Below, piece after piece: positions 8,349-32,358 of a stretch of DNA of 40,921 bases. The DNA lies in the UHGV virus genome UHGV-0093931. One strand, given 5' to 3'. The position numbers and the translations under genes were made by a program. The notes below the pieces were generated by a model that saw only the letters and a list, made by a program, of their open reading frames with translations, did no database searches and was not told the DNA's origin. Every line of letters begins with the position of its first letter. Position 1 is the stretch's first letter. The DNA comes from a virus.

Positions 8349-8900
8349 GTGGGTAACGAACCTATTTGGAAAGTCGAACGTCAGCCAGCCTGGCTGGTGG
8401 CGGCGATAAAAAAAACGATCACCGATCTTCCTGGTGGTTATGCCGAGGCGGCGGAATGGTTGGGCGTGACAGAGAACGCATTGTTCAACCGCCTTCGTGT
8501 TGACGGCGACCAAATCTTCCCGCTGGGCTGGGCAATGGTTTTACAACGTGCTGGTGGTTCAACTCATATTGCTGATGCCGTTGCGCGCCATTCTCAGGGC
8601 GTATTTGTACCGCTGGCAGACGTTGATGATCTGGATAACGCCGATATAAACCAGCGCCTGATGGAGTCCATTGAATGGATAGGTCGTCATTCTAATTTTG
8701 TACGTAAAGCCACGGCTGATGGGGTAATTGACGCAGATGAGCGTGCTCAGATTGAGGAAAACAGCTATCAGGTTATCGCGAAGTTCCAGGAGCACGTAAC
8801 GCTTCTTTATCGAGTTTTTTGTGTCGCTGAAAAGAGTGACGCCCGCGAGTGTGCAGCTCCGGGCGCCTTGGCGAACAACTCTTCGAGTATGGAGAAATAA
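8349..8900 (+). CDS. putative CII-like early regulator (phage 186 CII/CP76-like)
   Basis: 183-aa ORF directly after cro, GTG start with GGGGGGAG RBS; family assignment from memory only. Confidence 0.5.
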   Translation: MGNEPIWKVERQPAWLVAAIKKTITDLPGGYAEAAEWLGVTENALFNRLRVDGDQIFPLGWAMVLQRAGGSTHIADAVARHSQGVFVPLADVDDLDNADINQRLMESIEWIGRHSNFVRKATADGVIDADERAQIEENSYQVIAKFQEHVTLLYRVFCVAEKSDARECAAPGALANNSSSMEK

Positions 8901-8905
8901 TCCGC

Positions 8906-9232
8906 ATGAGCAGTTTAACGGCTTTTAACCGTCTACCGCAACTCAGGATGATCCCGGTTTCGGGTACTCCGTTGTTTCGGTATGAACGCAGATTATCAAA
9001 CCGCTGGGTTCCGTGTAACCACAGTAGGGCGGTTTCAATTGTGGGGGTCTATAACCGGAGGGCAAAACGCCTGTGCGCGAACTTAACCGAAGGTTCAAAG
9101 ACCACCGCGGAGTGTCTGTCCGTGTTATCCGCTGGGAACCAGAAACACAACGCGTTATCTACCTGCGTGATGGCTACCCGCACGAATGCTTCAGCCCACT
9201 TGAGCATTTCAGGCAAAAGTTCAGGGAGATAA
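8906..9232 (+). CDS. hypothetical protein (uncertain; an alternative overlapping 59-codon frame exists)
   Basis: ATG at 8906 with GGAG RBS; the S/R/N-rich translation is not convincingly protein-like. An alternative frame 9073..9252 reads more like a protein (see findings). Confidence 0.3.
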   Translation: MSSLTAFNRLPQLRMIPVSGTPLFRYERRLSNRWVPCNHSRAVSIVGVYNRRAKRLCANLTEGSKTTAECLSVLSAGNQKHNALSTCVMATRTNASAHLSISGKSSGR

Positions 9233-26176: not shown

Positions 26177-26215
26177 TGAAATAGCGGCCTTCGGGCCGCT
26201 ATTACAGGTGGGAAA

Positions 26216-26440
26216 ATGAAACTGATTGCACTTAAACCGATTTATTTCGGCGGTACCGTCGTTACTGAGGGGCTTCCGCTGGAAACTCTGGAACAGCACG
26301 GTCGCGAGCTCATCAAAAAAGGCTATGCGATGCTCGATGAATCAGAAAATCCTGCAGAGCAGGAACAGCAGCAGGAACAGCAGCAGGAACAGCAGCAGGA
26401 ACAGCCCGAAGTAAAAGCGGAAAAAAAGGCGAAAAAATAA
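26216..26440 (+). CDS. small head-region protein with EQQQ repeats
   Basis: 74 aa; C-terminal (EQQQ)n encoded by a tandem 12-nt repeat; located between capsid and connector genes. Confidence 0.5.
   Translation: MKLIALKPIYFGGTVVTEGLPLETLEQHGRELIKKGYAMLDESENPAEQEQQQEQQQEQQQEQPEVKAEKKAKK
26360..26404 (+). repeat. tandem 12-nt repeat (CAGGAACAGCAG), about 3.7 copies
   Basis: Direct reading of codons GAG CAG GAA CAG CAG CAG GAA CAG CAG CAG GAA CAG CAG CAG GAA CAG. Confidence 0.9.
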
Positions 26441-27910: not shown

Positions 27911-28363
27911 ATGGCTGATAAAACTTCGCCAGAGTACGCGATGCTGCCTGCTGGCACCGTCGTTATGTGGGGGGCTGCGGGCAGCAACGTAGCAACAATG
28001 AAACCACTCATTAACTGTAGAGCGCTGGGCGCTACAGGACAGACGGGCAGTTTTGTGGACTGCACTACGCTGATCGATACCAGTAAACAGTTTATCTCTG
28101 ACCTGCCTGAAGGACCTGAAAAATCTCTGGGCTTTATTGACGATCCAGCCAACCAGGACTTTGCTGATTTCCTCAACGCAGCAGAGAACCGGGAAACCGT
28201 ACAGTTTTACGTTGAGTTGCCAAATGGTCGAACGGCGAACATGATTCTGGCCCTGTCTGGCTGGCAGATGAATGAAATTACTGCCCCGGCAAGTGAAGTC
28301 ATTCAAATCACTGTTCAGGGAAAACAGAACAACATCACCTGGGGTACCGCAGCTGGCAGCTGA
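27911..28363 (+). CDS. major tail (tube) protein
   Basis: 150 aa; followed by an intrinsic terminator and then the G/GT chaperone pair and tape measure. Confidence 0.8.
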   Translation: MADKTSPEYAMLPAGTVVMWGAAGSNVATMKPLINCRALGATGQTGSFVDCTTLIDTSKQFISDLPEGPEKSLGFIDDPANQDFADFLNAAENRETVQFYVELPNGRTANMILALSGWQMNEITAPASEVIQITVQGKQNNITWGTAAGS

Positions 28364-28381
28364 TTCCCGAAACCATTCATT

Positions 28382-28406
28382 AGCCGCCTTCTGGCGGCTT
28401 TTTATT
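28382..28406 (+). terminator. intrinsic terminator after the major tail gene
   Basis: AGCCGCC-ttct-GGCGGCT stem-loop followed by TTTTATT. Confidence 0.7.
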
Positions 28407-28427
28407 ATCTAATTCTCAGGAAAAACT

Positions 28428-28790
28428 ATGTCCGCCATCGATGTCTCAGCATTGAAATCTGCTCTTCTGAAACCTAAAAGCGCCATTATTACTGCCGAAA
28501 TCTTTGGCACGACCGTTTATCTTCGTCGCATGACGGCGGGTGAACTCATCGATCATGAAGAAGCGCTGCGTGACAGCCAGATTGCCGAAGATGCTCGTAA
28601 AGCCTCAGAACTAAGCGTGCAGTTGATTGTCGATTGTCTGGTTCAGCCCGACGGCAGTCCAATCTCAGTTGAAGACAAGCCCACCGCATCGGAGTTGCTG
28701 CAGGCACATGACAACGTGGCGCTGCTTGAAGCTATTGCCACCGTGAAAAAGCATGCCCTTGGTAAACTTGAGGATGCGGAAAAAAACTAA
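28428..28790 (+). CDS. tail assembly chaperone (G-like)
   Basis: 120-aa ORF ending at a slippery A-AAA-AAC heptamer just before the tape measure gene. Confidence 0.8.
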   Translation: MSAIDVSALKSALLKPKSAIITAEIFGTTVYLRRMTAGELIDHEEALRDSQIAEDARKASELSVQLIVDCLVQPDGSPISVEDKPTASELLQAHDNVALLEAIATVKKHALGKLEDAEKN

Positions 28791-29029
28791 CCAACTCGCC
28801 CTGGCTTGAGCTGATTTTCTGGCTGGCTGACCGCTGGGGCGAGCCCGATCCATCAAAGATAGCTTCACTCCCGGTAGACACTCTCTACCACTGGCGCGCG
28901 TATTTCCTGCGTACTGGTGCCATCAGCCGTCCAGGCGAGGAGAGTGGGCCACCTCCTGAAAACCCGCCACCCGCTGCAGTCAGTAATGTTGACGATCAGT
29001 GCGCGGCCGTAATGAGAGCGTTAATGTAA
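28428..29029 (+). CDS. tail assembly chaperone GT-like fusion via programmed -1 frameshift
   Basis: Slippery heptamer A AAA AAC at 28781-28787; the -1 frame stays open for 80 codons (KKLTNSPWLELIFWLADRWGEPDPSKIASLPVDTLYHWRAYFL...) to a TAA at 29027-29029 that overlaps the tape measure ATG. Confidence 0.65.
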
Positions 29030-32000
29030 TGGCTGACGTTGCCTCCCTTGCCGTCGGGCTGCATCTCAACGCAGCCAATTTTAAATCTCAGCTGATGGGT
29101 GCATACGGTGATGCTGAGAATTCCTCAAGGCGCTTCAATCGTAGCGCGCAGGAAGATGCAAAAAAGACCGATGAAGCCTATTCCCGAATGGGTAAAACCA
29201 TCGCGGGAGTTGCCGGTCGTCTGGCGGGCTTTGCCGGTGCCGGGTTATCGCTCGGCGCGATCATCACGACTACGCGCGAATATGGACAGGCCCTGTCCGA
29301 TCTGTCGGCTATCACTGGTGCCACCGGAGCCCAGTTAAAGACGCTTGATGAAGCTGCGCAGGAAATGGGGCGAAGCACTGAATACAGTGCGAGTCAGGCG
29401 GTGGAAGCCCTTAAGTTGATGGCATCCGCTAAGCCTGAACTTCTTCAGACCGCAGACGGGCTTACTGAGGCGACAAAGAGCGCGCTTACGCTTGCTCAGG
29501 CCGCAGGCTCAACTTTACCTGATGCAACCCGCACTCTTGCTCTTTCGCTTAACCAGTTCGGAGCGGGTGCTCAGGAGGCTGATCGCTACATCAACGTGCT
29601 GGCAGCCGGTGCCAAGTTCGGGGCTTCTGAAATTGCAGATACCGCCGCAGCTATCAAAAATGGAGGTGTGGCCGCTGCACAGGCAGGAGTCGGTTTTGAA
29701 ACGCTGAATGCAGCAATTCAGGTTCTGGCCGAACGCGAAATCAAAGGCGGCGAAGCAGGCACGGCGCTTAGAAACGTGATCCTGGCGCTGGAGAAAGGTA
29801 CCGACAAAACCCTGAAACCCTCGATTGTGGGGCTTAGCGGCGCGCTGGAGAATCTGTCGAAGAAAAACCTTTCCACTGCGCAGGCCGTGAAGCTCTTCGG
29901 CGTTGAGAACATCAACGCGGCTTCGGTGCTGGTGGACAACCGCAGCAAACTTGATGCCCTGACACAGGCTCTCACCGGCACCCAGACGGCGCATGAGCAG
30001 GCCGCTATTCGCGTGAATAACCTGAATGGCGACATCATGGGGCTGACCAGCGCCTTCGAAGGCATGATCATTAAAATTGGTCAAAGCAGTACCGGCCCAC
30101 TGCGTTCAGGCATTCAGTCAGTAACCGATGGAATAAACCTGCTCACCGATAATTTCAATGCTGTTGCAAGCGTAGCTTTGTACACATTGATCCCCGTTCT
30201 CTCGACAAAACTAACTGCAGGTCTTCGCGAAAACGTAAGCGCCTGGCAACAAAATCAGGCAGCCGTAAAAGCTGCGGCTGCTGCCCAGGCTGACGGTGCA
30301 CGCAAAACGCTTGAAGCAACTGCCGCCACACTTAAGCGAAATGATGCCGAGTTTGGGTACTACCGCCAGATGGAGAAGATCGCCAGGCAACAAGGTCTGA
30401 ACGTTAATTACCAGGGGGAGTTTAACCGGTTAATTCGAGAAGAAACCGAGCAAACGAATCTGGCAACCCGAGCGAAAATGCAGCTGGCTGCAGCAAATCG
30501 CCAGATCTCAGTATCTGCTCGGGCTGCCTCGGTTGCAGTTGGGCTTGCTCGTGGGGCTTTAGCTCTGGTTGGTGGGCCGTTCGGTGCTGCAATGCTGGCA
30601 GGTTCGGCGCTACTGTATTTTCATCAGCAGGCGAAGGACGCCCGGCAGTCAGCGATTAACCTTAAGGATGCTGTCATTGAGACTACTGCTGCGCTGATGC
30701 AGATGTCTGATAAACAGCTGGCCGTTAAGCAGATTGACCTGCAGGACCAGTATGATAATCAGGTCACCCAGCGTAACCAGCTTATCAAGGAGATTCAGGA
30801 CGCAGACAGCAGGCTTGATAGCCTCGGAGGTTTTGACCCATTCCGACAGAAAAAAGGCGTAGAGGACAGTAAAAAACGAGCTGAAGCTGATCTCGAATCT
30901 GTGAATAAGGGGTTAGAAACAACACAGTCTAATCTTGAGAACGTCAGCAAGGCGCGCTTCTTGGTCCAGACAGGGATTGCAGATCAAGCCAAATCGCTCG
31001 CGAGTGACATCAAAACTATTACTGCGGAGACGGCTAAGGCCGGTGAGGGGGTTACTACTCCGTGGACCGGTGAAGATACTCAAAAGGCTAAGAAGGAAAC
31101 TGTTAATCAGTACCTTCAGTTGCGCAGGGAAATCGAAGAAGCTCATGCAACCAGCCTTGGAAAAATTGATCTCCAGGAGAAAGCCAGTCAGGAAAAGCTA
31201 ATCGCTGCGGCGCGTAAAAATGGGGCAAGCCAGCAGGACCTACAGCGTGCGCTGTTAATGAATGCTGAGAATTACCAGAAGCAACGAGCTGAACTTGCCG
31301 AGCAGTACTCACCTGCGCGCTCGGCAATCAATCAGGAAAAGGAAGCCAGCCAGGATCTGAAATCGCTTCTTGATGCCCGCCTGCTCACTGAGAAGGAATA
31401 CATGGCGGCGCGGGTGAAACTGTCACAGGAAACCTCCCGGCAAATTCTGCAGGCGCAGGCTGATGCTCTTTCGGCTCCGCGCATTGATCTTGGCGGTGAT
31501 GTTGATCCGCTTGTTGCGATTCGCAATCAACTGGCGCAGCGACAATCGCTGTTGCAGGCGTATTACGCTGGTAATGCCATCAGTAAGAACCAGTACGAAA
31601 TGCTGATGAAGCAAAGCAGTAAGGAATCTGCAGATGCACAGTATCAGACCGCGCTGGAATTATATCGCTCACAGAGTGACTTCAATAATCTGGCTATCGG
31701 CCTGGTTGAGGCTACTCGTGAGCGTACCACTAATGTCCTGACGGGGCTGCTGACTAAAACGCAGACCTTTAAAGAGGGCATGATCAACCTGTTCTCCACG
31801 CTCACTCAGTCGATAATTCAAAACCTCGTCGATATGGCAGCCCAGGCGTTGCTAACCAATACGATTCTGAGCTCCATCATGAGCGTAGGTTCGAGTGTAT
31901 TTGGGGCTGTTGGTAGCAGCGCGGCAGCCAGTTCAGGAACAGCCATTGCCGACTATGGCAGCAACTTCCAGTTCAACGCTAAAGGCGGTGTTTATTCCTC

Positions 32001-32358
32001 ATCAGATTTGAGCGCTTACAGCGGTCAGGTCGTCGATAACCCTACATTCTTCGCTTTCGCAAAAGGTGCCGGGGTAATGGGGGAGGCTGGTCCAGAGGCA
32101 ATCATGCCGCTAACCCGAGCCGCGGATGGGTCGCTTGGTGTGCGTGCTGTAAATAGTGGTGCAGCGGGAGGTGACACGGCACCGAAGGTTTATATCACCA
32201 TCGATTCAAGCGGAAACACATCGACACAGGCACCTGCAGGGCTGGAACAATTCGGTTCTGATGTAGGCCGATACGTCGATCAGCGATACAAGCAGAATGT
32301 GATGCGTGATATCCGTCCTGGCGGCGACATCTGGAACGCAATGAAAGGAACCCGATAA
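29029..32358 (+). CDS. tail tape measure protein
   Basis: About 1109 aa from the ATG at 29029 (track ORF begins at 28999); long alpha-helical, Ala/Gln-rich sequence with a hydrophobic Gly-rich segment; canonical position. Confidence 0.9.
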   Translation: MADVASLAVGLHLNAANFKSQLMGAYGDAENSSRRFNRSAQEDAKKTDEAYSRMGKTIAGVAGRLAGFAGAGLSLGAIITTTREYGQALSDLSAITGATGAQLKTLDEAAQEMGRSTEYSASQAVEALKLMASAKPELLQTADGLTEATKSALTLAQAAGSTLPDATRTLALSLNQFGAGAQEADRYINVLAAGAKFGASEIADTAAAIKNGGVAAAQAGVGFETLNAAIQVLAEREIKGGEAGTALRNVILALEKGTDKTLKPSIVGLSGALENLSKKNLSTAQAVKLFGVENINAASVLVDNRSKLDALTQALTGTQTAHEQAAIRVNNLNGDIMGLTSAFEGMIIKIGQSSTGPLRSGIQSVTDGINLLTDNFNAVASVALYTLIPVLSTKLTAGLRENVSAWQQNQAAVKAAAAAQADGARKTLEATAATLKRNDAEFGYYRQMEKIARQQGLNVNYQGEFNRLIREETEQTNLATRAKMQLAAANRQISVSARAASVAVGLARGALALVGGPFGAAMLAGSALLYFHQQAKDARQSAINLKDAVIETTAALMQMSDKQLAVKQIDLQDQYDNQVTQRNQLIKEIQDADSRLDSLGGFDPFRQKKGVEDSKKRAEADLESVNKGLETTQSNLENVSKARFLVQTGIADQAKSLASDIKTITAETAKAGEGVTTPWTGEDTQKAKKETVNQYLQLRREIEEAHATSLGKIDLQEKASQEKLIAAARKNGASQQDLQRALLMNAENYQKQRAELAEQYSPARSAINQEKEASQDLKSLLDARLLTEKEYMAARVKLSQETSRQILQAQADALSAPRIDLGGDVDPLVAIRNQLAQRQSLLQAYYAGNAISKNQYEMLMKQSSKESADAQYQTALELYRSQSDFNNLAIGLVEATRERTTNVLTGLLTKTQTFKEGMINLFSTLTQSIIQNLVDMAAQALLTNTILSSIMSVGSSVFGAVGSSAAASSGTAIADYGSNFQFNAKGGVYSSSDLSAYSGQVVDNPTFFAFAKGAGVMGEAGPEAIMPLTRAADGSLGVRAVNSGAAGGDTAPKVYITIDSSGNTSTQAPAGLEQFGSDVGRYVDQRYKQNVMRDIRPGGDIWNAMKGTR

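Follow-up and report, generated by a model that had tools for sequence, protein, structure and literature searches.

A conserved putative -1 frameshift between the tail chaperone frames G and T in the virus genome UHGV-0093931

Genes and features between the tail tube and tape measure genes

The window analysed here is a 40,921-nucleotide stretch of DNA from the UHGV virus genome UHGV-0093931. It looks like a nearly complete prophage of ~40 kb in which the late operon reaches the right end; its left end carries a 437-aa ORF on the - strand (50-1363). The genes flanking the locus of interest form a standard HK97-type head and lambda-type tail module, and the order along the window runs from the tube gene (27911-28363) through G (28428-28790) and the T frame (28772-29029) to the tape measure protein (TMP) gene (29029-32358). 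The upstream neighbour of the chaperone gene is thus the major tail tube gene, which defines the G/GT position. The features of the locus are as follows.

27911..28363, + strand: major tail tube protein gene, 150 aa (Pfam Phage_TTP_13, E 5.6e-72; PHROG 158, major tail protein)
28382..28409, + strand: terminator-like hairpin between the tube gene and G, found in a consensus scan (AGCCGCC-TTCT-GGCGGCT, then the T-run TTTTTATT)
28428..28790, + strand: G-like tail assembly chaperone ORF, the zero-frame product, 120 aa, with Pfam and PHROG matches
28781..28787, + strand: slippery heptamer A_AAA_AAC, the proposed -1 shift site, at the Lys119-Asn120 codons and inside an A7 run (28780-28786)
28788..28790, + strand: zero-frame stop TAA, adjoining the heptamer, a candidate pause ('shifty stop') element
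28787..29029, + strand: T-like extension in the -1 frame, 80 codons (LTNSPWLELIFWLADRWGEPDP...CAAVMRALM), with stop TAA at 29027-29029
29029..32358, + strand: tape measure protein gene, 1109 aa (Pfam PhageMin_Tail; TIGR01760; PHROG 339, E 3.5e-177)

A preliminary description of this stretch, made from the sequence alone, had the chaperone ORF ending in A AAA AAC TAA with the heptamer at 28781-28787, and this is exactly what is read at the end of 28428-28790, where the last codons are GCG GAA AAA AAC TAA and A_AAA_AAC sits in the X_XXY_YYZ phase of the zero frame. The same description held that slipping back by one base opens an 80-codon extension that stops at the tape measure ATG, and the coordinates confirm it: counted from the re-read C 28787, the -1 frame runs for exactly 80 codons (28787-29026) and closes at TAA 29027-29029, which shares its final A with the tape measure ATG at 29029-29031 (ATGTAATGG, a TAATG overlap). 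All of the features that it listed are present where it had placed them, and the description is therefore correct in sequence terms. The tape measure start is annotated at the equivalent ATG in the CharmingMan and RefSeq prophage records.

Upstream of 28772 the -1 frame is closed, and G and T overlap at 28772-28790 only (19 nt). Since the -1 frame is open only from 28772, a shift into T must fall within this overlap, and the only slippery motif that the overlap contains is A_AAA_AAC. A search of the T (-1) frame for an ATG, GTG or TTG giving an ORF of at least 20 aa found none, and we suspect that T is expressed solely as the C-terminus of a 200-aa GT fusion. The stop at 28788-28790 may act as a pause element. 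Further upstream, the hairpin at 28382-28409 may be a partial terminator that lowers G, T and TMP expression relative to that of the tube protein; the phiKO2 record annotates 'terminator putative' at the equivalent position.

G matches the Pfam family PF16462 (Phage_TAC_14) across the full profile at E 1.4e-31, with 109 bits against a cut-off of 22, and also matches PHROG 25875 and PHROG 344. The conceptual 200-aa fusion aligns with positions 2-195 of PHROG 25875 ('tail assembly chaperone', 195 positions) at E 1.4e-80, and the extension alone matches the C-terminal 80 positions of this family (116-195) at E 4e-31. Because the fusion matches PHROG 25875 end to end, fused products of the family must already be present in phage records. 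A Pfam search with the T family returned no match, and a search of solved structures by sequence with the fusion returned no relative.

Conservation of the proposed slip site and constraint on the -1 frame

Relatives of the locus were gathered from the phages CharmingMan, Fostie, phiKO2, PY54 and ST846-OXA48phi9.1, from one E. coli prophage, and from 30 genomes of other Enterobacterales and 80 IMG/VR contigs, giving 102 distinct G-to-T regions across which identity drops to 27% for G and 38% for T. The A7C sequence (AAAAAAAC) is kept in phase at the end of G in 101 of these regions, the codon next to the heptamer is TAA or TGA in 100, and T lies in the -1 frame in 101. The overlap of the T stop with the tape measure ATG is found in most Enterobacteriaceae-type relatives. 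The preliminary description had made its reading depend on conservation of the -1 frame in related phages, and the frame proves to be conserved as protein across Escherichia, Klebsiella, Yersinia, Serratia, Xenorhabdus, Photorhabdus, Providencia and other hosts. Because the first search patterns included codons of the slip site itself, the search was repeated with patterns lying inside the G body, drawn from a 7-sequence alignment and returning relatives that were all at least 65% identical. In this sample, which is independent of the slip site, the A7C-stop junction occurs in 67/67 distinct regions, and the same 67 regions carry a -1 frame of 78-84 codons ending ATGTAATG.

A count over the 23 late genes of the window gives 24 X_XXY_YYZ heptamers that are in frame, and four of these are A_AAA_AAC. 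A heptamer or an 80-codon open frame alone is thus not beyond chance, and the significance of the arrangement comes from its conservation. An A_AAA_AAG at 26422 provides an internal control, being unconserved in genomes that keep A7C. At the slip site itself, C 28787 is never T in ~100 sequences, though a C-to-T change would alter neither the zero-frame Asn (AAC to AAU) nor the -1-frame Leu (CUR to UUR). The third base of the re-read Leu codon is limited to A or G, and no other base would leave the zero-frame stop intact.

The few exceptions are of different kinds. One contig has a truncated T. The Klebsiella phage Kpn74 (OQ790078; 1290-2070) has A6 at the slip site and another 1-nt deletion slightly downstream, and its tail genes are a series of many tiny ORF calls on both strands; given these further indels and fragmented ORFs, we read its A6 as a homopolymer or indel error of assembly. 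The Erwinia typographi lineage (L010/L118, about 2850-2880) keeps both A_AAA_AAC and the T frame, with TTA replacing the stop, so that its G is 6 codons longer than it would be with an adjacent stop. As a natural variant it could help to show whether a stop next to the heptamer is important.

Constraint on the extension was measured on 65 distinct ungapped segments covering the 126 nt after the heptamer. Column entropy by codon phase of the -1 frame is 0.37 / 0.35 / 1.00, and pN/pS is 0.23 in the -1 frame, while the two remaining frames give 1.56 and 1.59. T evolves as a coding sequence, under strong purifying selection in the -1 frame only.

The downstream stem-loop and the proposed shift

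The region just after the heptamer folds into a stem-loop.

28795..28843, + strand: stem-loop in the MFE fold, 49 nt, starting 7 nt after the heptamer, the proposed frameshift stimulator
28795-28805 and 28833-28843, + strand: 5' stem arm (CUCGCCCUGGC) and 3' stem arm (GCUGGGGCGAG), 11 bp

The core of the stem consists of 7 bp (28795-28801 with 28837-28843), and only this core is firm. Among 65 distinct sequences, 90% of cells are paired, compared with 31-50% when the partners are slid. Changes on both sides are seen in 7 of the 11 stem pairs, and none of 500 shuffles of the 65-sequence alignment reaches the observed values. At the pair 28798/28840, G-C has become A-U in four separated lineages of the G-protein tree, and the change is synonymous on both sides (Ser TCG to TCA, Gly GGC to GGU); at 28801/28837, C-G has become G-C in the Xenorhabdus/Photorhabdus clade and again in Serratia. 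Fourfold-degenerate sites are also much less variable inside the stem arms than outside them.

Folding energies point in the same direction. The window segment has an MFE of -24.3 kcal/mol versus -18.0 ± 3.0 kcal/mol for synonymous recodings (z -2.1), only 2.25% of the recodings are as stable as the native segment, and the median z against synonymous recodings over the 65 relatives is likewise -2.1. Measured against dinucleotide shuffles, the z of the stem in the window is only -1.1. The stem is absent in two distant relatives, from Arsenophonus (L037) and Plesiomonas (L038). Its arms overlap the most conserved residues of T, the 5' arm lying in the Ser-Pro-Trp codons and the 3' arm in those for Arg-Trp-Gly-Glu, and part of the conservation of the stem is therefore driven by the protein.

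Other structural candidates were set aside. An inner helix proposed by RNAalifold (columns 36-39 with 58-61 of alignment A2) has one-sided changes only and competes with the outer extension of the stem. An upstream SD-like stimulator of the dnaX type could be sought in the GAGGA at 28770-28774 of the window, but ~36 loci show CTGGAAACCGCC or something similar there, so the motif is not conserved. A search of Rfam over 28600-29100 at E values up to 1 matched no family.

Two features of a canonical -1 cassette are thus present: a heptamer in phase, and a maintained structure that starts about 5-9 nt downstream. The stem-loop at 28795-28843 is probably a frameshift stimulator. The stronger claim, that it is a true stimulator written into the most conserved residues of T, could equally well be right or wrong. 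If it is right, RNA structure and T protein sequence would constrain each other, and the GT:G ratio across the phage lineage would be set jointly by the stem, a weak heptamer and the stop beside it. A G/GT frameshift would then have a documented stimulator; our literature search found no description of a stimulator for this G/GT family.

We consider it likely that G and GT are made by a ribosomal -1 slip at A_AAA_AAC, aided by the stem. The sequence anatomy, the protein families, the coding constraint on T, the invariant site and the covarying stem are observed here; from them the shift itself, its ribosomal nature, its efficiency, the roles of the stem and stop and the function in assembly are inferred. 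Most ribosomes would terminate at UAA 28788 and yield the 120-aa G, and a small fraction would slip back one base on A_AAA_AAC 28781-28787, decode CUA (28787-28789) as Leu and read 80 codons to yield the 200-aa GT. The expected junction is ...LEDAEKN-LTNSPWLELIF..., with the tryptic peptide NLTNSPWLELIFWLADR, in which Asn is retained, predicted if the slip follows Asn decoding. The slip would probably be aided by the stem-loop 7 nt downstream, with a possible further contribution from the adjacent stop if it is decoded slowly. In E. coli, A_AAA_AAC is a poor shifter compared with A_AAA_AAG (PMC4066793, PMC5009743), yet it supports >0.1% -1 frameshifting when no stimulator is present (PMC4066793). 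On the lambda model, the tape measure protein would be coated by G and by the G portion of GT, the T portion would recruit the major tail tube protein, and frameshift efficiency would set a fixed low GT:G ratio. The proposed function in assembly is an analogy, since neither lambda G nor lambda T is significantly similar in sequence.

A different route to the same fusion is transcriptional slippage, in which RNA polymerase would add one A on the A7 run so that A8 transcripts put G and T in one frame. The product would read ...AEKK-LTNSPW..., with Lys replacing the junction Asn, although LTNSPWLELIFWLADR preceded by Lys-Lys is also expected from a slip on Lys. The homopolymeric run at 28780-28786 would be the substrate for such an event, and position 28780, which the heptamer model does not need, is nevertheless A in all relatives, two of which have A8; AAAAAAA runs are moreover known to be slippage-prone (PMC4066793). 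The run is nonetheless A7 in 99 of the 102 relatives, A8 in 2 and never longer. Efficient transcriptional slippage in bacteria uses runs of about 9 or more A/T, a length that none of these sequences attains. The invariant C 28787 also fits a constraint on codon-anticodon pairing better than one on the polymerase, and a covarying structure at a spacing of 7 nt downstream is a feature of ribosomal frameshifting. We therefore regard transcriptional slippage as an improbable source of the fusion, though it could coexist with ribosomal slippage.

Within ribosomal frameshifting, the outcome would be unchanged if a single tRNA in the P site, either tRNA-Asn on AAC or tRNA-Lys on AAA, slipped while the A site was waiting at the stop, as in the 'shifty stop' concept (cited in PMC5009743), rather than two tRNAs slipping in tandem. 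This sub-variant would explain why a stop lies directly after the run in 100/102 relatives and why the third base of the Leu codon is restricted to the two bases that preserve it. In the Erwinia typographi lineage, however, heptamer and T persist without an adjacent stop, and the full X_XXY_YYZ phase is conserved, and we think a single-tRNA slip very unlikely to be the main event. Least credible of all, to the point of being close to negligible, is the absence of any recoding, with T as an independently initiated small gene, a decaying remnant, or the product of a sequencing frameshift in a once continuous gene. Most related records do annotate G alone and leave the 240 nt unannotated, and one record, Kpn74, has A6. 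Against this, the T frame has no usable ATG, GTG or TTG and is under strong purifying selection, the A7C-stop junction recurs in ~100 independent sequences that many sequencing projects obtained from many genera, and the indels and fragmented ORFs of Kpn74 are typical of assembly error. A ribosomal -1 slip on the conserved heptamer is the interpretation that we favour.

Known counterparts and genome context

The locus has overlapping ORFs between the tube and tape measure genes, a G that belongs to a recognised chaperone family, a second ORF that is frame-shifted, startless and conserved as protein, and a conserved slippery sequence inside the overlap. The preliminary description had taken it for the conserved G/GT arrangement of long-tailed phages; gene order, the matches to Phage_TAC_14 and PHROG 25875, the phiKO2 annotation and the conservation described above all fit and support its assignment as a G/GT tail chaperone frameshift. 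In that arrangement (Xu, Hendrix & Duda 2004) the fusion is a minor product, a few per cent of G, that tail assembly requires, and neither protein enters the virion. A frameshift of this sort would be ordinary and of an already known kind, with a homologue already annotated in phiKO2.

The closest described instance is gp13/gp14 of the Klebsiella phage phiKO2 (NC_005857), where a joined CDS at 8490..9097 is annotated as a 'putative programmed frameshift from Gp13', itself a prediction, and the annotated end of gp14 is the computed -1 stop. The phiKO2 proteins are homologous to those of the window at ~53% identity for G and ~69% for T. The two loci share an identical GCGGAAAAAAAC+TAA junction, an 80-codon -1 extension with ATGTAATGG at its end, where the tape measure gene starts, an identical downstream stem sequence and a terminator-like element upstream of G. 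They differ in their setting, phiKO2 being a linear-plasmid prophage of Klebsiella with an otherwise different genome.

Lambda has the arrangement with a -1 frameshift at G_GGA_AAG (Levin et al. 1993; Xu et al. 2004, 2013, 2014; summarised in PMC5009743), a G:GT ratio of ~30:1, for which a low shift yield is needed, and a T that binds the tube protein (PMC5009743). Like the window, it has G and T between the tube and tape measure genes, a short major product with a minor -1 fusion made near the end of G, and a T stop that abuts the tape measure start. Unlike the window, in which the slip would occur directly at the G stop on A_AAA_AAC, lambda slips 5 codons before the stop on G_GGA_AAG, and its T is 144 aa long rather than 80. 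BLASTP against lambda G and T found nothing significant, the lowest E values being 0.055 (G) and 2.7 (T). When the T-family profile was compared with lambda T by hhalign, LADRWGEPDP...HWRAYF aligned weakly with LAREMGRPDW...DWHRFY (E 0.011, probability 4%), and a scan of viral contigs with lambda T recovered 100% identical copies only.

The heptamer itself has precedents elsewhere. IS1 insA-insB' of enterobacteria also uses A_AAA_AAC, in a proven frameshift of low efficiency that keeps the fusion scarce (PMC4066793); its product is a transposase, not a phage chaperone, and no established stimulator has been reported for it (PMC4066793), whereas the window has a conserved downstream stem. The g-t pair of the haloarchaeal virus HCTV-2 is reported to use A_AAA_AAC as well (PMC5009743), although that virus is archaeal and the sequences are unrelated.

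Set against these systems, what is added here is a joined-CDS annotation of 240 nt and comparative evidence for the downstream hairpin, and both additions are small; they refine known biology and provide one more well-conserved example of a textbook case. The 240 nt between the chaperone and tape measure genes should be annotated as a -1 extension in a joined CDS. In the records of CharmingMan, the E. coli 21AR0133 prophage, Fostie and PY54, only the 120-aa chaperone is annotated and the ~240-nt T region is blank. The lineage could also serve as a convenient natural system for asking how a weak heptamer, a stop and a modest hairpin fix a low product ratio.

As for the distribution of the locus, the 28300-29200 segment of the window was matched in 1 of 5,426 complete E. 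coli genomes, at ~91% identity, and G and T proteins identical to those of the window are encoded on L039, a 40,124-nt IMG/VR contig. Comparison of window positions 16000-40921 with mEp235, Fraca and CharmingMan revealed mosaicism: mEp235 and Fraca have head and tail-tip genes ~87% identical to those of the window, but carry an HK022-type tube/G/T/tape-measure block. Because these phages share the head and tail-tip genes and differ in that block, the phiKO2-type tube-G/GT-TMP block appears to be exchanged as a unit.

Two further elements lie upstream, next to the capsid gene. Between the capsid and adaptor genes is a 74-aa ORF (26216-26440) with a Lys-rich tail and a 12-nt tandem repeat (CAGGAACAGCAG) present in ~4 copies that encode QEQQ repeats. 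It ends with an in-frame A_AAA_AAG at 26422-26428, from which the -1 frame runs into the adaptor gene, and a second frameshift was considered here; it is unlikely, given that the heptamer is not conserved (close relatives read GAC AAG AAG) and that the gene is absent from other relatives. Directly after the major capsid gene stands a GC-rich hairpin, GCGGCC-TTCG-GGCCGC (26181-26204), that relatives retain, in some cases with an added T-run; the mEp235 record annotates a rho-independent terminator at the matching place.
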